Source of the DNA: a virus
Virus record (IMG/VR): IMGVR_UViG_3300009135_000004
Span: 1 to 44,649 of that record
DNA length: 44,649 bases
Strand: one strand, 5' to 3'
In this document: one piece after another, positions 441-18,837 of the stretch
Layout: every line of letters starts with the position of its first letter
Numbering within the stretch: position 1 is the stretch's first letter
The notes under the pieces: model-generated
The model's input: the letters and a program-made list of their open reading frames with translations, nothing else
Database searches by the model: none
What the model was told of the DNA's origin: nothing
Made by a program: the position numbers and the translations under genes

Positions 441-669
441 CTGCTTGCTCCTTGAGTTGGGCGGCGAGGGCGTGGATGTGTGCCGTGTACGCAGATGCGT
501 CAGTGGAGATGATCGCCTCCACCAACTCCCGCGACTTGTCCTCGCGGGCCTCAAGTTCAGCGATCTTGTCACGCTGGCTCAACTCAAGGTCAGACGCTGG
601 CCTGCGGTCGGTGGTGCTGTTGCTTCCGCTCAGACACACCTCGTCAAAGTCGTTGATGTATTCAGTCAT
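433..669 (-). CDS. Hypothetical small protein (78 aa), RIAELE-family paralog
   Basis: Trimmed to the junction ATG at 669 (MTEYINDFDE...). Contains DKIAELEARE and ends AAQLKEQADD, with its stop overlapping the next start. Confidence 0.6.
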   Translation of the reverse strand: MTEYINDFDEVCLSGSNSTTDRRPASDLELSQRDKIAELEAREDKSRELVEAIISTDASAYTAHIHALAAQLKEQADD

Positions 670-1666: not shown

Positions 1667-2451
1667 TCGCGTAAGTCCTTCCCCTTTGAGGGGTAAAAGA
1701 TGCTGCCATAAGAGTATTGAGAGATCAGCTCGTTGGCAGCGTCACGAGCATGTTCCCTGTTAGCGTTGGTGTCGGCATCGAGTATCTGGTGGATTTCCGT
1801 GGGCTTGAGCCACTGGAACATCTCCATGATCTCGGGGTTGCCGGTGGTCGAACTGGGCCGACCAATGATGTTGAGCCCTTTTGTCCAGCCGACAAACGAG
1901 TCTGACGCACCATCGACGATGAGGATGGATGCTCGCTTGACGAGGCTCTGGGGATGGTAGAAGAGCCCATTCCTTGACCCGGAGACAGCGTACTTGAAGC
2001 CGTCATAATTCCGGAGGCGAAGCCCTACGACTTTCCCTTGCGCGTCCCTCATCGGGAAGGTCCAGCAGCCTAGAGAGTTGCAGGAAGTCCCCATGTCGTT
2101 GAGTTGACGGCTGGTGAGGTAGCCGACGCCCCAGTCTTTGAGTTCGTCCACCGAACTGCCCAGAAGCCGAGACAGGGGTCTGAGATGACGGCGAGGAGCG
2201 GTTGCCGACATTCCCATGGCCTTGTCCCAGTTCTGGACGGGGCGGTTTTGCTGTTGCTGTGGTGGCGGCGTAACGCCGTCGAAGTTGTGGCGATGGAAGA
2301 AGCCCACGCCCGCACGGTCCTTCTTTTGGCTGAAGGAGCCGTCTCCGACCTGTGTGCATTTCACAATGCCGTCAGCGGGGTTGAGCGTGCAGTAGTGCGA
2401 GCTACCGCAGATGGGGCATGGAAGTGCCGAACTTGCTTGCATCCAAGTCAT
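1579..2451 (-). CDS. DnaG-type primase-like protein: N-terminal Zn-ribbon plus TOPRIM domain, no helicase domain
   Basis: CPICGSSHYC...VKC zinc ribbon. ILIVDGASDSF and ILDADTNANREHA TOPRIM acidic motifs. KGKDLREWL near the C-terminus. Start set to the ATG at 2451, 4 nt after the upstream stop. Confidence 0.65.
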   Translation of the reverse strand: MTWMQASSALPCPICGSSHYCTLNPADGIVKCTQVGDGSFSQKKDRAGVGFFHRHNFDGVTPPPQQQQNRPVQNWDKAMGMSATAPRRHLRPLSRLLGSSVDELKDWGVGYLTSRQLNDMGTSCNSLGCWTFPMRDAQGKVVGLRLRNYDGFKYAVSGSRNGLFYHPQSLVKRASILIVDGASDSFVGWTKGLNIIGRPSSTTGNPEIMEMFQWLKPTEIHQILDADTNANREHARDAANELISQYSYGSIFYPSKGKDLREWLLETNSLPTKLSASAITCGRTARCSKQ

Positions 2452-2455
2452 GTCA

Positions 2456-2845
2456 TCAGTCCTCGCTTTTATCTGAGTCTCGGTACTCTCGGTATTCTCG
2501 GACTTCTCGAATGACATCTTGAACCACAGACATCAGTTCGGGGCTTTGGAGCGAAGTGATCTTGGCAAAAAATTGAAAGGGGGTTTTCAGGTAAGCGAGA
2601 TTTGTCACAAGATTATTGGCTGTCCCAAAAGGCCCGCCATGCTTGCTGAACCTTTCTGGCTTCGCCTGACTACCGTCAGGGAAGGAGTGCAGAGGGAAGG
2701 TTTTTTCTAGCTCTTTTAATGCGGCATTGCCTTCCAAGGCTGCATCAGAAAAGGTGTCGAAGACGCCCAGCGTGACTGTTTGAGAGCCGGGGCCGCGATC
2801 GACTCTTGGGTATCGAAACTCAATTTGAAGTAAATATCTTGTCAC
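2456..2845 (-). CDS. Hypothetical protein (129 aa)
   Basis: GTG at 2845 preceded by GGAG with 6-nt spacing, just after the upstream stop at 2847. The longer track ORF (to 2962) has a low-complexity out-of-frame-looking N-terminus. Confidence 0.5.
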   Translation of the reverse strand: MTRYLLQIEFRYPRVDRGPGSQTVTLGVFDTFSDAALEGNAALKELEKTFPLHSFPDGSQAKPERFSKHGGPFGTANNLVTNLAYLKTPFQFFAKITSLQSPELMSVVQDVIREVREYREYRDSDKSED

Positions 2846-2846
2846 A

Positions 2847-3023
2847 TTAGACTCCGCGGGCTTGAAGGAAGGTGTCTCGTTTGAATCGCGGGTTGGAGGT
2901 GGAGCAAGCCACCATGACCTCGTTGACGCAGCGAAGCCACTGGTCGTAGGCGGGGCCATCACTTTCGTAAGGCCGTGAGGCCTTCATCGCTTGAGCGATC
3001 AGGGTGAAGTGTCTTCGGTACAT
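2847..3023 (-). CDS. Hypothetical small protein (58 aa)
   Basis: ATG at 3023 preceded by CACCAAGGAGACATT (strong SD). Translation begins MYRRHFTLIAQAMK... Confidence 0.5.
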   Translation of the reverse strand: MYRRHFTLIAQAMKASRPYESDGPAYDQWLRCVNEVMVACSTSNPRFKRDTFLQARGV

Positions 3024-3070
3024 AATGTCTCCTTGGTGAAAGAGTGTGGCCGGGTATCCCCTTGCCACGC

Positions 3071-3316
3071 CTAAAAAACCCTTTGGACCAGAGTGCAGTT
3101 GATGATAAAAGGCTGAGAGTTGGCGAGAAATCGCCCTCGCTTTGTTGAAAATACCCTGTCGCAGCCCTCTGCATTGTCCTTCTTCATCTTCGTAATCACG
3201 ACTTGTACAGATGTATCCTTTTGCATCGTAACCAAGAAGTCTCCCGGCTCTAGCCTGAGCATCCTGTGGTGAAGTGATTCTTTTTCGAGATATCCTTTTT
3301 TGCGTCCTCTGGGCAT
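3071..3316 (-). CDS. Hypothetical basic protein (81 aa)
   Basis: ATG at 3316 preceded by the same leader CTTTCACCAAGGAGACACT as the gene at 3023. Translation begins MPRGRKKGYLEKE... Confidence 0.5.
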   Translation of the reverse strand: MPRGRKKGYLEKESLHHRMLRLEPGDFLVTMQKDTSVQVVITKMKKDNAEGCDRVFSTKRGRFLANSQPFIINCTLVQRVF

Positions 3317-3334
3317 AGTGTCTCCTTGGTGAAA

Positions 3335-3403
3335 GCCACGGGGAGGAGTCGAACCTCCCGTGCAACGCAACATCCGTGAAAGCGTCACACGCCCTGCCGT
3401 GGC
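3335..3403 (-). other. tRNA-like element (perfect 7-bp acceptor stem plus T-arm) lacking a canonical anticodon arm; degenerate tRNA or att-like relic
   Basis: Minus strand: GCCACGG ... GGAGG-TTCGACT-CCTCC-CCGTGGC, 69 nt. The D and anticodon regions do not fold canonically (best anticodon stem 3 bp; no U33). Confidence 0.3.
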
Positions 3404-3470
3404 AAAACCCGACTCGGGAAGGTGGAACTACACGTTCCGTCGGGAGCCTTGCGTTTAATCCCGAGTCGAG

Positions 3471-3507
3471 GAAAACCGCCGTACCCCATGTCAGAGTACG
3501 ACGGCGG
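3471..3507 (-). terminator. Possible intrinsic terminator after ssb
   Basis: Minus strand: CCGCCGT...ACGGCGG (7-bp GC stem with an inner GTAC/GTAC pairing) followed by TTTTCC. The U-tract is short. Confidence 0.35.
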
Positions 3508-3518
3508 AAAGAATCTTC

Positions 3519-3884
3519 TTAGAAGGGAGGGTCTTCTACAAAGGTTCCAGCGGCGACCGTCGCCGGGCTGTTGTTGTCGCGGGTCTTGACGAACTCGAAG
3601 TCATCGGCTTTCAGCTTGACAGCCTGACGCTTCTCGCCGTCCTTCTCCCAACGCTCTTGAACGAGACGGCCCACGATGTAGACCTTGTCGCCCTTGGCGT
3701 GATAGTTGGCAAAGGCTTCTGCACCCTTGCCCCACATCTCGCAGTTGAAGAAGTTAGCGGACTTGTCTTTGTCCTTCTGGAACGGGTCATTGCAGGCGAT
3801 ACTGAAGTTGACCTTGGTCGTCTCGCCAATCTTGACGACTTCGGGGTCTTGGGTAAGGTTGGCTACGCCATTGAAACGAATCAT
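3519..3884 (-). CDS. ssb: Single-stranded DNA-binding protein (OB fold)
   Basis: Typical SSB N-terminus (NGVANLTQDPEV...FSIA), internal W and F residues, and an acidic C-terminal tip ...FVEDPPF. ATGA-coupled to the upstream annealase gene. Confidence 0.85.
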   Translation of the reverse strand: MIRFNGVANLTQDPEVVKIGETTKVNFSIACNDPFQKDKDKSANFFNCEMWGKGAEAFANYHAKGDKVYIVGRLVQERWEKDGEKRQAVKLKADDFEFVKTRDNNSPATVAAGTFVEDPPF

Positions 3885-13231: not shown

Positions 13232-14080
13232 TTACAGTTCAACAGTGCTTGCGATGAAGTCTGCTACCCGTCCTGCCTTGGTCTCCAGCTGAGTGATGGT
13301 TTCGAGGCGAAGGTGTTTGCTGTGTTGCTTGCAGGCGTCCCGAACCTGACCGGGTAATGCCTGTGCTGCCACGGCTGCGTCTTCGACCTCTTGAAGGCCA
13401 ACCGCGTCGTCGTACTTCGTCTGAACGTGTTCGATGAGGTTGTCGATAAGTTCAGCGGCCTTTTCAGCGTCCATGACCTCGGTGAGGTACTCGTCGTTCT
13501 CGGAGTTGATGCGGTCAGTGACCTCTGCGACTGATTCGGTCCAGTCATCGGTGCAGAACTCGCGGAGTGCCTGAGCGGTCTGCGACTTAGTCGGCTCATC
13601 GCGTTGGCCGAGGTAGATGCTGACAACATCGAGTGCTCTGACAGTACCCATTGTCGAGGTAGTGACAGGGGTCTCTGTGCCAGTTTCCATGTTGAAGAGG
13701 CCAAAGGACTCAAGCCAAGCCACGAGGCCTTGACGGACGATCAGGTTGCCCTGCTTGGACTGCTGCGGGAAGAGGCGAGCGGCGGCTGACCACGGGTTGA
13801 CTGTGCCGAAGGCCTCTTTCAAGTTGCGAGCGACTTCCTCAAGCACGCCCATCTCGTGAAGCTTTGTGCAGGCGTCGATGAGCTTGTCGCCGAGAAGCGA
13901 AGTCTCTGGCCATTGGCGACGGCAAGCACCTCGTACTCGGGCCGAGCTAGCGGTCTTCTGTACGCGGAGAATCCTGACAGCCTCAGCGAGGATGTCATTG
14001 GCCACCTCTGCGTCGGTCGATGCCTTTGCAATGATGGCGTCTGCTGCGGTCTGGTCGATGAGGTTTGCGAAATCTGACAT
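13232..14080 (-). CDS. Hypothetical protein (282 aa)
   Basis: Long clean ATG ORF with acidic, helical composition. No motif recognised. Confidence 0.6.
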   Translation of the reverse strand: MSDFANLIDQTAADAIIAKASTDAEVANDILAEAVRILRVQKTASSARVRGACRRQWPETSLLGDKLIDACTKLHEMGVLEEVARNLKEAFGTVNPWSAAARLFPQQSKQGNLIVRQGLVAWLESFGLFNMETGTETPVTTSTMGTVRALDVVSIYLGQRDEPTKSQTAQALREFCTDDWTESVAEVTDRINSENDEYLTEVMDAEKAAELIDNLIEHVQTKYDDAVGLQEVEDAAVAAQALPGQVRDACKQHSKHLRLETITQLETKAGRVADFIASTVEL

Positions 14081-14178
14081 GGTGTGTTCCTTTCGAGAAC
14101 GTGTTGTGGTGTGCTACCGTTCACCTCGAACGATAGAAAACGAGCAAGGGTTGTTACGCCCTTACCCGCTGAGGTGTC

Positions 14179-14448
14179 TTAGTCGTTTGAGGTTGGCTCC
14201 CAGTTGGCCTGCTCAATCAATGACCATTTGTACCGCAAGTGGGCCGCCTGCTCTCTGTAGTAGCCTTTAAGCGTGTCTACATGTTGCAGGAGAAAGGCGT
14301 AGTTGCCTTTGTGGGCCTCCTTTTCAAGCGGTTGGATGTGCTCTTCCCAGATAGGGTACAAGTCATCCTCGGTGGCCGTGTCTTGCATAAGGTAGAATAC
14401 CTTTTCGAGGTGTTGCTCTCGTTGTTCGTGGGTGGTTGGGATGTCCAT
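14179..14448 (-). CDS. Hypothetical protein (89 aa)
   Basis: ATG 14448 after GAAAGGCATCAC. Translation begins MDIPTTHEQREQHLEKVFYLMQ... Confidence 0.5.
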   Translation of the reverse strand: MDIPTTHEQREQHLEKVFYLMQDTATEDDLYPIWEEHIQPLEKEAHKGNYAFLLQHVDTLKGYYREQAAHLRYKWSLIEQANWEPTSND

Positions 14449-14494
14449 GTGATGCCTTTCTGTCTTGCGGCGTTGCTGCTCCACATCGGAGCAA

Positions 14495-14534
14495 TTACAA
14501 AAACAAAGCAGCAAGCGATCAATGGGTTGATCGC
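14495..14534 (-). terminator. Candidate intrinsic terminator ending the ORF-poor transcript
   Basis: Minus strand: GCGATCAA-ccca-TTGATCGC (perfect 8-bp stem) followed by TTGCTGCTTTGTTTTTG. Confidence 0.45.
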
Positions 14535-15200
14535 AAATCTGTGCTCGGGGCTAAGAGGCGACATGTGTCAGGCTTCTCGACATAGGGTCCACAGGCCGGG
14601 CTTGCCCCGTGCCGAGTGGACAATGGCGAGAAGGCTGGAGGTTAGGAGCAGCTATTTTCATGCACTTCAGTTGGGATGTGCGTTTTGCGATCCGAAACAG
14701 TGAGTGCGAAATTGTGGTTTACCCCAGCCAGTAAGATTGCTGAGGCGAGGAGTGTGTCAAGAATCCGTTTAGTAGCCGACTTTGAGAGGGTGTTCTTTGG
14801 AGTTGGGCTGTGGCCGAAGCCTGAGCACTGGCTGTTTCGCCCATTGATTGCTTGCTAGACTGGATGAAAGCCGTTAGGCCCGTAGCGGGCGAGCACGACG
14901 CAGCCGAGTCAAGCTTTAGGTCGTAACCAAGAGCCTGTGTCAGGCTGTGATTGAGTGCTCGTTTGCGGGTCAATACCTTGTGAGTGCGATCCAGAGCACC
15001 TGTTCAGGGATGAGCCGAGGGGTAGAGTGCTTCGCAGGGAAATTGCCGGGTACGTGGTAGTGACAGAGAAGCATTCAGCACTGATATTTCTAGCGATGCC
15101 TGTGTTGGCCTTGCCAGCAATACAGAGAGCTGCTTATAGAACAGAGTGGATGACTTCAGTGATGTGGCGGTGTGTCACTGGCCCGGCAAATCGAGGAAGG

Positions 15201-15383
15201 TCAAGAGAGCAAGTACTTGAGAGCACCAAGGGCAATGCAGACCCAGCCAGCGATGCCTGCGAGCATGATGAAGGTGACCACGGCAGCGTAAAAGACGAGG
15301 ATTATGTTGGTAATGAGGCTTGGTCGAGCCTTCTTGGGCTGCTTAATGTGGGCCTTGGGGGTAATGTCATAGGGCTTATTCAT
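15201..15383 (-). CDS. Small membrane protein (60 aa)
   Basis: ATG 15383. Translation MNKPYDITPKAHIKQPKKARPSLITNIILVFYAAVVTFIMLAGIAGWVCIALGALKYLLS shows two hydrophobic helices. Confidence 0.5.
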   Translation of the reverse strand: MNKPYDITPKAHIKQPKKARPSLITNIILVFYAAVVTFIMLAGIAGWVCIALGALKYLLS

Positions 15384-16156
15384 AGCAGTGCCTTGGGGTG
15401 AGTGGGTGTGGTGGTGTGGGTGTGATACTGTACACACAAGCACAGTGGTGAGCAGGTGTTATGTGTGGTGAGGCGAGGACCAGCAGGGTAGAACACTGTC
15501 GGGTGGGGGTGAGATGGACGCTGATGACATGGGATATGGGGTATGGGATGAACGTTCCACCATCCATGTGTGTGTCCACCATAATCAACGCGACCCACTG
15601 TGATTGAAGTGGAAGGGGGGTGGGGTCCCCCAATCCGGTTGGGATGACCCTATTATGTTCCCATCTTATAGCCGCCCCCCAAACCCCCGCCCTAGTCACT
15701 TCGGGGTAGCCCGTCATTGTGGAAGACTATTGAAGATTGCGCAAGAAAGGCTGGGGGTATGGTCCTCGTAAGCCCCGGTCAGGTCGTTGGTTGAGTGGTT
15801 ATTTGGGGAGAAAAGAGGGGTACTTTTTCTGACCGAATGGTCTCGTGGATAAACTCGGGATACACCGATCCCTTAGCGGGAGGGGTGTTTACACCGCCCT
15901 GAGTGTTTGGTTCCGGCATCTCAGGGTCTCGCCCTGCCGGTTCTCGCAACGTTATCCGTGGTGTCCCCGGCTAAGTGTATCGGTAAGCCAAGCCGGGTAC
16001 GAGAAAAACTTCGGCCAACCGTCTTCACGCTGTCATCCTTGTGGTGGGGGAGAGGGAGCTAACGGAAGGTATCCATTTAGTTGAGTCCGAGCGATCTCTG
16101 CTCTGCCGGTGTCGAAGGCGGTCCTTGTCTCTGGGGGACTGCCAGCCTAATGAATG

Positions 16157-16336
16157 TCAGGGCTTCTTCTTGCCCATGAGCCTGTCGAGGGTTTCCCAGT
16201 CTCCGGTCTGTTCAGCCTTGCGGATAGCCGCCCACTTGCTCCTTTTGGGCAGGTGGTTGAGTCCGGTGCGGTTGCCTTTTTCCCAAGACTTCCTGCTGAA
16301 CATTTGAGTTGGGTGACCTGACTTACTCACGGCCAT
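16157..16336 (-). CDS. Hypothetical small basic protein (59 aa)
   Basis: ATG 16336. MAVSKSGHPTQMFSRKSWEKGNRTG...DWETLDRLMGKKKP has balanced composition. Start uncertain. Confidence 0.4.
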   Translation of the reverse strand: MAVSKSGHPTQMFSRKSWEKGNRTGLNHLPKRSKWAAIRKAEQTGDWETLDRLMGKKKP

Positions 16337-16355
16337 AATAATACCAGAATGGGGC

Positions 16356-16383
16356 TTGCACTTCAAGTCTCCTCTGGTATATT
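16356..16383 (+). promoter_or_regulatory. Candidate sigma70-type promoter for the plus-strand block (extended -10), possibly giving a leaderless mRNA
   Basis: TTGCAC - 16 nt - TGgTATATT. The -10 ends 6 nt before the ATG at 16390. Confidence 0.4.
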
Positions 16384-16389
16384 GGTGAG

Positions 16390-16674
16390 ATGCTCCCATC
16401 AGACATCATTGACCACTGTGCCGACAAGGGTAAGGCGATCTCGCTTATGTCCTTGGAGGGTAGCCCGAACCTGTTCACCGCCGACAATGCCCGGTTTGTC
16501 CACCGCTTCGAGTATCGAGGCGTTGACTGCTTCGTGCTTGTCCCCTACAAGGGGGAGGGGCTCAAGCGGTTCTGGGCCAAGCTGCTGCGGTACGTCCGCA
16601 AAGAGAAGCATAATGAGGATGATATGTGGGAGAATGGCATCGAGGAGAGCGTGTGGGAAAGGCGGGCGGCATGA
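16390..16674 (+). CDS. Hypothetical protein (94 aa)
   Basis: First plus-strand ORF after the divergent switch. Globular composition. Confidence 0.5.
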   Translation: MLPSDIIDHCADKGKAISLMSLEGSPNLFTADNARFVHRFEYRGVDCFVLVPYKGEGLKRFWAKLLRYVRKEKHNEDDMWENGIEESVWERRAA

Positions 16675-16951: not shown

Positions 16952-17323
16952 ATGCTTGTTGAACTGGACCGAATATGCGACCTGATCGAATGGCGGATCG
17001 AGCCCAATAGGATTGTGGGCCGTCTCCGCATGAGAGATGTGAACACGGAGAGATCAGTCACGATGCGACTGGCCGGTTATTCTGTGCACGACCGCCTGCG
17101 TCGGCGGACTGAGGCTCAAGTTTCTATTGCTATCGAGATTGTTAAGGATGTTTACCATGGCCGATTGTTTGATACCAAACAGCTTGTCGATAATTCAGCT
17201 GTTCATGATGAGCCGGAGCCGGTCAGAGGATCAGGCGACAAGCCTGCTCCAGAAGCTCCACGAAGAGCACAACCCAAGAAAAAGAAGCGAAGTCGTCGGA
17301 ATGCTGGTGGATCAGCTGATTGA
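16952..17323 (+). CDS. Hypothetical protein (123 aa) with a strongly basic C-terminal tail, directly upstream of terL
   Basis: ATG 16952 after AAGGAAG. C-terminus ...RRAQPKKKKRSRRNAGGSAD. Its position is that of a small terminase or DNA-binding partner. Confidence 0.5.
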   Translation: MLVELDRICDLIEWRIEPNRIVGRLRMRDVNTERSVTMRLAGYSVHDRLRRRTEAQVSIAIEIVKDVYHGRLFDTKQLVDNSAVHDEPEPVRGSGDKPAPEAPRRAQPKKKKRSRRNAGGSAD

Positions 17324-18837
17324 GGACTTGTGCTGGACTGAGCGGAGGGGCGACCAAGACCTTGAGCCACGACCACAATATACCGCCTGAAGACCTCCAG
17401 AAGTTTGCCGATCTCCTCGGCAAGGCGAAAGAGATGGCTTCCAAGAAGAAGCTCTCTTGGGAGATGTCTAAGCCTTTCAACTACGATCTGCCTCCCGGTC
17501 CCGGCAACGTCGGGCCTTACGAGTGGCAGATTGACTTCCACAATGCCGGTGCTCACTACGTTGAACGCTGCCTCATGGCGGCGAACCAAGTGGGCAAGAC
17601 CCGTACTGGCGGGGCTGAGACTGCGATTCATGCGACGGGTCGGTATCCTGACTGGTGGCAGGGCAAGCGGTATAACCGGCCTGTTGAGTGGTGGGTCGGG
17701 TCCGAGACGAACCAGTCCAGTCGAGACATTGTCCAAAAGGAGCTCATTGGAGATTCCGATAGCCCCGGCTGGATTCCCAAGGACAGGATCATCAAGATCA
17801 ACTACCGCCAGTGCGGTATCCCCAGTGTCGCCGAGTCGGTGCTGGTGCGGCATAAGTCCGGTGGCGTGTCCAAGATCGGCTTCATGACCTACGAGCAGGG
17901 CCGGAGGAAGTGGCAGGGTGTCCGAATGGATGGCCTGTGGATGGACGAAGAGCCGCCGAACGATGTGTTCAGCGAAGCCTTGATCCGCTTGGTGGCCAAG
18001 CAGGGCATCATGTACCTGACGTTCACGCCTTTGGAGGGGATCAAGGATACCGTCCGCCACTTCATGGACGGCGGTCAGGGTATCAAGGTGTTCTCGGCAA
18101 CGTGGGATGATGCTCCCCACTTGAATGCGGAGCGTAAAGAGCAGCTCTACAACTCGATTCCGGCCCACGAGCGCAAGACACGGACTCAGGGCGTGCCGAT
18201 GGTCGGCACTGGCCTTGTCTATCCCATTAACGAAGAAGAGATCAAGTGTGATGCCTTCCAAATCCCCTCGCACTACGCTCGTATATGCGGGATCGACTTC
18301 GGTTTCGACCACCCCTTCGCCTCCGTCTGGATCGCTTGGGACCGGGATCAGGACATCATCTATGTCTACGACTGCTACGACCAGATCGGGGAAACCCCGG
18401 CGTACCATGTTGAAGCCATCAAGAAGCGGGGCGACACGATCCCGGTTTCGTGGCCGCATGATGGACAGCAACGAGAAAAGTCTTCAGGCGTTCATCTCGC
18501 GGAACAGTTCCGAGTGCAGCACCGACTTGAATCGATGCTTGGATTTTCTGCCCGATATGACAACGAGAAGGGGGGTGGCCAAGATACTGAGCCGATTGTT
18601 ATGGAAATCAACGAGAGAATGCGAACTGGACGTTTCAAGGTCTTCCGTCACCTTGACCGATTTTTTAGAGAGCTTCGCATGTACCATCGAAAAGACGGGC
18701 AGATCGTGAAGAAGAATGACGACATCATGGCTGCGATGCACTATGCCGTGATGATGAAAAGATTTGCGGAGCCCTTGACAAAGGCCGCTCCTATGCCCGA
18801 TAGTGTGTCTGACTACAATCCTCTGGAGATGTTCTGA
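17320..18837 (+). CDS. terL: Terminase large subunit
   Basis: Walker A-like AANQVGKTRTGG. YPDWWQG and GLWMDEEP (Walker B-like) ATPase motifs, then a nuclease-half pattern (GIDFGFDHP...). Start is TTG 17320 (TTGA-coupled) or ATG 17434. Confidence 0.85.
   Translation: MRTCAGLSGGATKTLSHDHNIPPEDLQKFADLLGKAKEMASKKKLSWEMSKPFNYDLPPGPGNVGPYEWQIDFHNAGAHYVERCLMAANQVGKTRTGGAETAIHATGRYPDWWQGKRYNRPVEWWVGSETNQSSRDIVQKELIGDSDSPGWIPKDRIIKINYRQCGIPSVAESVLVRHKSGGVSKIGFMTYEQGRRKWQGVRMDGLWMDEEPPNDVFSEALIRLVAKQGIMYLTFTPLEGIKDTVRHFMDGGQGIKVFSATWDDAPHLNAERKEQLYNSIPAHERKTRTQGVPMVGTGLVYPINEEEIKCDAFQIPSHYARICGIDFGFDHPFASVWIAWDRDQDIIYVYDCYDQIGETPAYHVEAIKKRGDTIPVSWPHDGQQREKSSGVHLAEQFRVQHRLESMLGFSARYDNEKGGGQDTEPIVMEINERMRTGRFKVFRHLDRFFRELRMYHRKDGQIVKKNDDIMAAMHYAVMMKRFAEPLTKAAPMPDSVSDYNPLEMF

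Follow-up and report, generated by a model that had tools for sequence, protein, structure and literature searches.

A candidate pseudoknotted RNA recurring across phage lineages, and a second putative RNA domain, in the gene-poor early/late junction of a marine phage genome

What function, if any, is served by almost two kilobases of DNA that encode next to nothing in an otherwise densely coding phage genome? The genome in question is the IMG/VR virus record IMGVR_UViG_3300009135_000004 (44,649 bp, the whole of which is hereafter called the window), a complete marine phage with direct terminal repeats and a coding density of about 90%. Its minus-strand early genes run leftward from about 16.3 kb and its plus-strand packaging and structural genes run rightward, including a large terminase gene (TerL, 17320-18837) of the Terminase_6N/6C type; the region considered here lies just left of this divergence. 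The original prediction, made from the letters of the sequence, had described about 1.9 kb here as nearly free of open reading frames (ORFs), and its two gaps, 15384-16156 (773 nt) and 14449-15200 (752 nt), are indeed the two largest gene-free gaps of the genome, whose median gap is 48 nt. Of the contents then proposed, structured RNAs stand as supported candidates, not as one long RNA but as two elements or more, encoded on opposite strands with a small gene and a promoter-like conserved block between them. Taken as a whole, the region is probably a non-coding control hub with three separate elements, and the upper of these (Table 1) is likely a real structured RNA.

The scarcity of genes is genuine. 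When ORFs were scored by codon-usage log-odds trained on 19 long genes of the window, the only coding-like ORFs at 14100-16450 were 14179..14448/14514, 15201..15383/15443 and 16157..16336/16399 on the minus strand, the last of them with a weak score (8.7), and 16390..16674 on the plus strand; all other ORFs of at least 30 aa scored at most 4.7. Comparison with relatives by tblastx gave matches to the conserved blocks in all six frames, which indicates conservation at the level of DNA and not of protein. Both tiny genes within the region have weak syntenic homologues, and the 59-aa gene is poorly conserved and is replaced by 344 unlike nucleotides in one metagenome relative (15971-16333 exchanged). 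The gene-poor 1.9 kb is non-coding DNA and does not conceal missed genes.

A distant-mode blastn search of 14100-16500 against 50,697 GenBank phages gave no match, and a search of IMG/VR with a single 94-aa protein, encoded beside the divergence, returned no related loci; an aligned 94-aa query in metagenomes yielded loci L085-L091, and other relatives were reached through TerL. The related-phage fragments are L003, L090 and L091 (near-identical to each other), L086, L087 and L088/L089. The possibility raised earlier, that homologous phages encode conserved proteins here, was examined: the relatives have ORF-poor stretches of 1.5-1.8 kb at the same location and encode no conserved proteins in them. 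By blastn, identity over block 15612-15714 is 80-86% in five loci, and over block 15858-16033 it is 75% in the L003 group; these non-coding blocks are better conserved than the adjoining small genes, which barely align. Additional metagenome data are Logan contigs from four marine DNA runs of one study, which carry no start, end or strand information and in which mosaic junctions are frequent (14477, 14887-14965, 15705-15731 and 15971-16333).

The upper element is conserved in its pairing. A pairwise consensus fold of the window and L003 contains 12 pairs changed on both sides and none broken. The H1 hairpin bears a conserved 16-nt loop that pairs over 5 bp with the bases just 3' of H1, forming a pseudoknot, and a short helix, P2, closes off an arm of two helices, P3 and H2, that bears another conserved loop. 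The nested stems CCCGGC...GCCGGG noted earlier around 15966-16003 correspond to H2, which covaries in relatives. The 3' domain (16051-16150) is lineage-specific and keeps its terminal hairpin, and the L086-L088 subgroup has a covarying helix of its own there. Compensations in H1 and H2 are already visible in a plain MAFFT alignment of all lineages, in which both loops are conserved: H1 occurs as CCUGAG/CUCAGG, CCAACG/CGUUGG, CUGCA/UGCAG and GCAAGA/UCUUGC, and H2 as CCCGGC/GCCGGG, CCCCAG/CUGGGG, CCCCGG/CCGGGG and GCUCGA/UCGAGC. The family signature reads GUGUUUGGKUCNGGCAU ... CCCUGCCN'G ... CAGUGYGUCG..CGCCGA. A long-range pairing suggested by the pairwise fold, ACACCG (15862)/CGGUGU (16107), was not consistently supported in L086 and L087 and was set aside; a five-way consensus fold from MAFFT alone was poor, with misaligned arms, and a model-based alignment was used instead.

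A covariance model, R1, was built from the window and the near-identical L003 and L091 (two lineages). It matched the other relatives in syntenic position and on the plus strand (E = 3.5e-10 in L087, 5.6e-7 in L086 and 2.5e-5 in L088/L089) and found no element in 74 more distant TerL loci; a match in L043 (E = 0.2) was taken as noise. A degenerate motif (H1 loop plus CCCTGCC) scanned against IMG/VR returned 98 stretches, most of them by chance, among which R1 selected L163, L107, L149, L155, L135, L148, L104, L169, L142 and L116. Although the search pattern covered neither P3 nor H2 nor the H2 loop CAGUGYGUCG..CGCCGA, these unrelated contigs have all three. The element was thereby recovered in 15-16 phage contigs from at least ten lineages. 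One 53-kb phage contig (IMGVR_UViG_3300020577_005687) holds two copies of the core, one about 900 nt downstream of terL (L104:3894-3981) and one adjoining a RecE-like exonuclease gene (L148:9400-9490).

In an alignment of 14 sequences, 92.6% of the pair cells are paired, against 69.5 +/- 1.5% in shuffled controls and 28-46% when the partners are slid. Compensatory changes are present in 23 of the 38 pairs (14.4 +/- 1.9 when shuffled, 4-8 when slid), a number reached by none of 500 shuffles, and each pair of H1, P3 and H2 covaries. The pseudoknot joins C-N-G-G-C of the H1 loop to the complementary G-C-C-N'-G right after CCCU, and its variable pair N/N' is A-U in nine sequences, C-G in two, U-A in two and a mismatch in one; with L116 (C-G) added, it is paired in 14 of 15 members. 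Compensation beyond both shuffled and slid controls, the generic mark of a conserved structured RNA, is accordingly found, in an alignment that was fitted to the model. It is this covariation across many phage lineages that supports reading the upper element as an RNA.

Strand and gene context point to a putative RNA gene of its own. G-U pairs exceed A-C pairs (19 vs 10), favouring the plus strand of the window, and the model of the reverse complement scored lower in 10 of the 13 non-training members. A third, equally modest indication of that strand is a strong hairpin terminator that five members (L107, L142, L149, L155 and L163) carry on it 60-100 nt past the element. Convergent genes follow in these members, an arrangement that speaks for an RNA gene in its own right rather than a leader or riboswitch. 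A riboswitch or cis leader would stand constantly upstream of the genes it regulates and have an expression platform; the element does not fit this, as those five members are terminator-followed and neighbours vary: terL lies downstream of it in the window group and upstream of it in L104, an integrase gene lies near it in L169, and a Toprim-primase-like gene and a ResIII/DEAD helicase gene adjoin it in L107, L149, L155, L142, L163 and L135.

The element matches no described family. The Rfam scan that had been suggested (Rfam 15, 4227 covariance models) gave no match over the whole window at gathering thresholds; positions 14000-16600 at E <= 1 returned only a spurious HOTTIP_2 (15 bits against a threshold of 80), and eight other members at E <= 0.5 returned nothing save a tRNA elsewhere in L169. 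ARAGORN found no tRNA or tmRNA gene in the whole window. Among about 185,000 prokaryote species genomes, a 23-base-specific motif matched one contig, from a Planctomycetes metagenome-assembled genome. In a literature search the RNA family was without description. The catalogue of 8,495 novel IMG/VR RNA candidates of Fremin et al. 2023 (PMC10690425), compared by its published summary figures only, also draws on IMG/VR and likewise rests on covariation in phage intergenic regions, but its candidates are short (mean 67 nt, range 29-151 nt), and it could contain no more of the element than fragments such as H1 or H2.

Some likeness to known phage RNAs is nevertheless apparent. The upper element shares with GOLLD and ROOL the character of a phage-borne, stand-alone structured RNA of unknown function, with multiple helices, pseudoknots and highly conserved loops, placed between genes and without a constant gene partner. 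GOLLD (about 800 nt) and ROOL (about 580 nt) are large ornate RNAs often found on phages and prophages; the upper element measures about 300 nt, has no Rfam 15 match by cmscan, and comes from other hosts and habitats, in marine and several environmental samples. The pRNA of phi29 is also a phage non-coding RNA (ncRNA) with loop-loop pairing, and in the window group and L104 the element has the large terminase gene as its neighbour; its loop pairing is intramolecular as modelled, however, and most members are not beside packaging genes. To our knowledge pRNA is confined to phi29-like phages, whose packaging ATPase is unlike Terminase_6. On balance we lean towards the view that the upper element is the first example to be recognised of a hitherto undescribed class of pseudoknotted, phage-specific ncRNA, spread as a module among unrelated tailed phages in marine and other samples, with a biochemical role of its own (for example, binding of a polymerase, primase or defence protein), and standing in the window beside a second, unrelated structured RNA domain. 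Its product would be a stable RNA, transcribed on its own, that acts in trans by binding a protein of the phage or the host and serves as a regulator, a decoy or part of a ribonucleoprotein. Given that the RNA is real, such a trans-acting role has a little less than an even chance; a primer or origin role is rather unlikely, as is some other role, and a role as cis leader is slightly more so.

Between the two structured elements lies the piece most widely shared among the relatives, a 65-nt core block at 15612-15678. It consists of a G/C hairpin, GGGGGGTGGGGTCCCCC (15615-15631), a spacer of 19 nt that varies in sequence and is constant in length, and then TATTATGTTCCCATCTTATAGCC (15651-15673), a segment reading TATTATGTTNCCATCTTAYAGCC. 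The block is 80-86% identical in L003, L086, L087, L088 and L091 while its flanks diverge, and it occurs only once in the genome, where chance alone would give 0 matches. An exact-pattern scan of IMG/VR with AGTGTATCGGTAAGCC gave two chance matches without homology, and one with a 22-mer of the block found only the contig of L003. In the marine metagenomes the block appears as 64-nt unitigs with a summed depth of 54-137 (three covering runs) against about 6-15 in most flanking bins, from which it appears to be common to many more phages than its neighbours. The opposed G-run and C-run blocks described earlier belong here in part, the G-run (15611-15631) lying inside the block and the block taking in the first bases of the C-run (15671-15692).

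The sigma-70 consensus has TTGACA at -35 and TATAAT at -10, with a spacing of 16-18 nt. On its minus strand the core block has TTGGGS-18/19-CATAAT (8 of 12 positions), and on its plus strand CCCCAA-17-TATTAT, in which TATTAT has no -35 and the conserved CCCCAA stands 17 nt upstream instead; the -10 is invariant in five lineages. The block may be the promoter of the leftward early genes, together with an operator or an activator site, and might work in both directions; the earlier suggestion of an early promoter/operator hub is plausible for it, with a loose sigma-70 fit. HK022 put (two stem-loops, about 70 nt in total) and lambda nut (boxA/boxB) offer a parallel, as they too are conserved stem-loops near a phage early promoter: the G/C hairpin of the block follows the leftward CATAAT at a distance of about 15-30 nt, and a putative terminator further along (14498-14534) would need read-through. 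Neither the put nor the nut motif is present, however, and the large element stands at operon ends in other phages. An ORF starting M(F/L)PSYS overlaps the block (15655-15771, plus strand), with homologous starts in L003, L086, L087 and L088, and the only two variable positions of the block are third codon positions of this ORF. A conserved peptide was considered and rejected: the ORF ranges from 11 to more than 120 codons across lineages, and its upstream in-frame part changes non-conservatively. The match to third positions is probably coincidence, a leader peptide being a distant option. A 21-nt direct repeat, 81% identical, beginning GGTTGGGATG..., was also seen at 14434-14454, where it spans the start codon of gene 14179-14448, and at 15637-15657, in the spacer of the block; it is probably due to chance.

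The lower stretch is a different kind of structure, on the minus strand. The fold of 14490-14900 has an energy of -142.6 kcal/mol (z = -4.91; none of 100 shuffles as stable), with a centroid close to the minimum free energy structure; on the plus strand z is -3.65. Helices Pa, I2 and Pb form a three-way junction that Pa closes, and Pa is followed directly by the U-tract CUUUGUUUUUG (14508-14498). Underlying it is an inverted repeat, 14510-14526/14840-14856, of 17 nt with one mismatch, expected by our estimate about 0.006 times per 2 kb. The small motifs listed in the original prediction are all at the positions given for them, and the repeated GCGATC is accounted for by Pa, I2 and Pb. The hairpin and U-tract reported at 14495-14534 are present as a hairpin, GCGATCAA/TTGATCGC (14515-14534), with a T-rich tail on the minus strand, though the terminator scan did not call them: the local 8-bp hairpin is absent from the consensus list because the U-run starts 8 nt past its stem, while the long-range helix Pa abuts the U-tract (14498-14534 compared with an intrinsic terminator, which is a G+C-rich stem with a U-run right behind it). 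The two halves of the hairpin can pair instead with distal partners, in Pb and Pa, giving alternative 3' folds. Metagenome contigs match 14477-14887 with 7 differences in 411 nt (98% identical), all of which spare Pa, Pb, I2 and the long hairpin; to the left the contigs no longer resemble the window, and in place of 14887-14965 they have 124 other bases. An exact scan with the 20-mer of the lower hairpin gave no match. Thermodynamics and this 98% conservation support the lower stretch as a candidate structured RNA.

Table 1. Features of the region and their coordinates in the window.
Feature	Position	Strand	Basis or remark
Conserved structured RNA-like element (upper element), covariance-model core 15891-16050	~15857..16150	+	pairwise consensus fold, covariance model R1, pair counts
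Helix H1	15897-15903/15920-15926	+	
Pseudoknot	15913-15917/15936-15940	+	
Helix P2	15933-15935/16046-16048	+	
Helix P3	15941-15948/15998-16005	+	
Helix H2	15966-15971/15992-15997	+	
3' hairpin	16117-16124/16136-16143	+	
59-aa small gene, convergent with upper element	16157..16336	-	coding score 8.7; weak L003 homologue, E 0.002
Partly conserved spacer, possibly 5' leader of upper RNA	15679..15856	+	15731-15971 89% identical in one metagenome contig
Core conserved block, 65-nt, putative promoter/operator	15612..15678	.	conservation in five lineages
CA-rich (GT-rich on + strand) unstructured leader upstream of 60-aa gene	15384..15611	-	fold z = +1.1
60-aa single-pass membrane protein gene	15201..15383	-	coding score 18.9; C-terminal homologue in syntenic L088 ORF, E 5e-5
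Structured non-coding domain, putative 3' untranslated region or small RNA	14498..14862	-	fold and conservation
Helix Pa, closes three-way junction	14857-14840/14526-14509	-	
Helix I2	14839-14825/14707-14693	-	
Helix Pb	14692-14684/14537-14529	-	
Long hairpin in lower domain	14637-14569	-	
Local hairpin GCGAUCAA-CCCA-UUGAUCGC	14515..14534	-	sequence and folds

These parts can be arranged in one tentative scheme. The core block would drive leftward transcription of the CA-rich leader, the 60-aa membrane-protein gene and the early genes, and perhaps rightward transcription toward the upper RNA as well. The leftward transcript would end in the 360-nt three-way junction (14862-14498), whose closing helix stands directly before the U-tract and which would compete with the small local hairpin. 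The lower domain may act as terminator and stabiliser, and could gate read-through into gene 14179-14448.

Several observations weigh against this reading of the region, which takes transcription, strand, RNA ends and all functions as inferred from the DNA. The upper stretch is thermodynamically ordinary (z about 0). Pairing percentages are inflated by fitting the family alignments to the model structure, an effect that the slid controls and plain MAFFT alignments mitigate and do not remove, and helix P2 shows no covariation at all and overlaps the pseudoknot by three bases. The signal for the plus strand is modest. A consensus scan found no promoter for the upper RNA, the best manual matches reaching 8 of 12 positions, and no site in the core block passes a sigma-70 scan with a 9-of-12 cut-off. 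In six members the primase and helicase genes next to the element are no less in keeping with a role in replication than with a trans-acting one. For the lower element, blastn of 14401-15620 against 188 loci gave no match, leaving it without an alignable diverged homologue; two of its seven variants break minor predicted helices; and its 98% identity may reflect recent recombination rather than selection.

It is conceivable, if improbable, that the upper element serves replication, either as a primer RNA associated with an origin or as a structured single-strand signal for initiation. In ColE1 RNA II and at the phage T4 oriF/oriG R-loops a transcript folds, stays hybridised to its template and primes DNA synthesis, and the upper element would resemble these as a structured transcript at a module boundary whose fold precedes function. 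Primase-like and helicase genes lie beside it in the six members named above, the early/late divergence of the window is a common place for a phage origin, and a G-rich tract (16040-16056) follows the core. That tract, however, is not conserved in L003, and no primase or helicase adjoins the element in the window; elsewhere its neighbours are terL, an exonuclease and an integrase. RNase H-type origin features, an antisense partner and a conserved G-rich/C-rich hybrid-forming pair were not seen, nor were an AT-rich unwinding element, iterons or a skew inflection, and the same-strand terminators in five members suit a discrete RNA better than a persistent hybrid. By sequence inspection and not with a dedicated predictor, a G-quadruplex has little to build on: the G-runs at 15615-15625 are only two, and 16040-16056 is the tract that is not conserved. 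The iteron-like repeats of the original prediction did not hold up either. An iteron origin has at least three direct repeats of about 17-22 nt at regular spacing, with an AT-rich unwinding element and often a skew inflection. GTGAGTGCGA does occur twice, but 15 two-copy families of 10-21 nt in the same 2 kb amount to chance level; such scattered repeats are all that was found, GC at 14-16 kb (0.535-0.547) is near the genome average, and cumulative GC skew, calculated as had been proposed, rises monotonically with no inflection. A shade less probable still is that the element acts in cis as leader of the late/packaging operon to its right, either sensing in the manner of a riboswitch or, like put, modifying the polymerase for terminator read-through. 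In the window group the element lies on the same strand, 240-600 nt upstream of the conserved 94-aa gene and terL, its conserved loops and pseudoknot are typical of aptamers, and P2 and the pseudoknot compete for the same GCC in a switch-like manner; yet gene neighbourhoods are inconstant, the five terminator-followed members with convergent genes have nothing downstream to regulate, and the operon of the window and L003 is set apart from the element by a convergent small gene and a distinct, conserved sigma-70-type promoter (16356-16383).

Two further explanations were weighed, and we regard both as very improbable. The region might consist mostly of coding sequence (small proteins, pseudogenes) that has decayed or escaped annotation, or of neutral filler that mosaic recombination left behind, with the structures as by-products. 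In favour of this, mosaic junctions are frequent, the mean fold stability of the whole region is ordinary (mean z = -0.26, not unusually stable overall), and the M(F/L)PSYS start overlaps the core block with variable positions at third codon positions. No ORF scores as coding, however, tblastx matches fall in all frames, the MFPSYS ORF is as inconstant in length and upstream sequence as described above, and neither coding nor neutral decay predicts compensation in 23 of 38 pairs together with a covarying pseudoknot. Alternatively, the core block and stems might be packaging sites (cos or pac) acting at the DNA level close before the terminase genes: 1.6 kb separate the block from terL downstream, its G/C-richness recalls many cohesive ends, and it is both very widely conserved and found nowhere else in the genome. 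In characterised phages a TerL of the Terminase_6 type with ends of the circularly permuted type usually goes with headful and not with cos packaging, and the TerL here is Terminase_6N/6C in a record that ends in a direct repeat like circularly permuted assemblies; metagenome contigs cross the block without a pile-up of ends, contigs being poor evidence for ends. On these grounds a cos site is unlikely, and covariation that keeps pairs is not expected of a double-stranded protein-binding site.

The surroundings of the three elements are conserved to varying degrees. A divergent sigma-70-type promoter pair at 16338-16383 (rightward TTGCAC-16/17-TATATT, leftward TTGAAG-17-TATTAT, in the aligned ends of L003, L086, L087 and L088) adjoins the 94-aa gene and is kept in each of the five lineages, even where the small leftward gene is absent. 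In L086, a relative without that gene, a minus-strand intrinsic terminator, CCCGAG...CUCGGG followed by GGAUUUUUU (L086:5745-5790), lies between the divergent promoter region and the RNA element and would shield the element from antisense transcription. The spacer between core block and upper element contains a perfect 8-nt palindrome, TTGCGCAA (15737-15744), a motif T(T/C/G)GCGC(A/G)A..GTGCTG that recurs in L086, L087 and L088, and a weak promoter-like CTGACC-15-TAAACT (15829-15855). The CA-rich leader is about 90% conserved in metagenome contigs, with similar GT-rich tracts in L086 and L088. Directly after the small membrane-protein gene, L088 has a strong intrinsic terminator (L088:1710-1765, minus strand; a hairpin of about 23 bp, then UUUUU), followed by about 420 nt of non-coding DNA and a homologue of a 282-aa gene; the window has no such terminator after 15201. 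Further afield, L169 carries a tRNA gene (503-575, minus strand) and a tyrosine-integrase gene (2441-3553, minus strand), which suggests that the upper RNA also occurs in a temperate phage or prophage, and giant ORFs without Pfam or PHROG match, of 2,637 aa (L149:3226-11139, minus strand) and at least 1,682 aa (L107:5937-10985, minus strand), stand just upstream of the RNA in two phages of about 43 kb each.

For annotation, the largest gene desert of this phage reads as functional non-coding DNA and not as a gap in assembly or gene calling. We know of few large structured phage RNAs (GOLLD, ROOL, pRNA and introns), most of them without known function, and among such elements the comparative signal here is unusually clean: three fully covarying helices, a covarying pseudoknot and two invariant loops, in at least ten lineages and almost absent from cellular genomes. 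The 160-nt core is small enough for probing, pull-downs, cryo-electron microscopy or crystallography, and the motif and covariance model are now supplied for collecting further members. Movement of the element as a module between phage backbones suggests a portable function, such as replication control or counter-defence, and, if the reading given here is true, the early/late junction of this phage would be an RNA-rich control centre.

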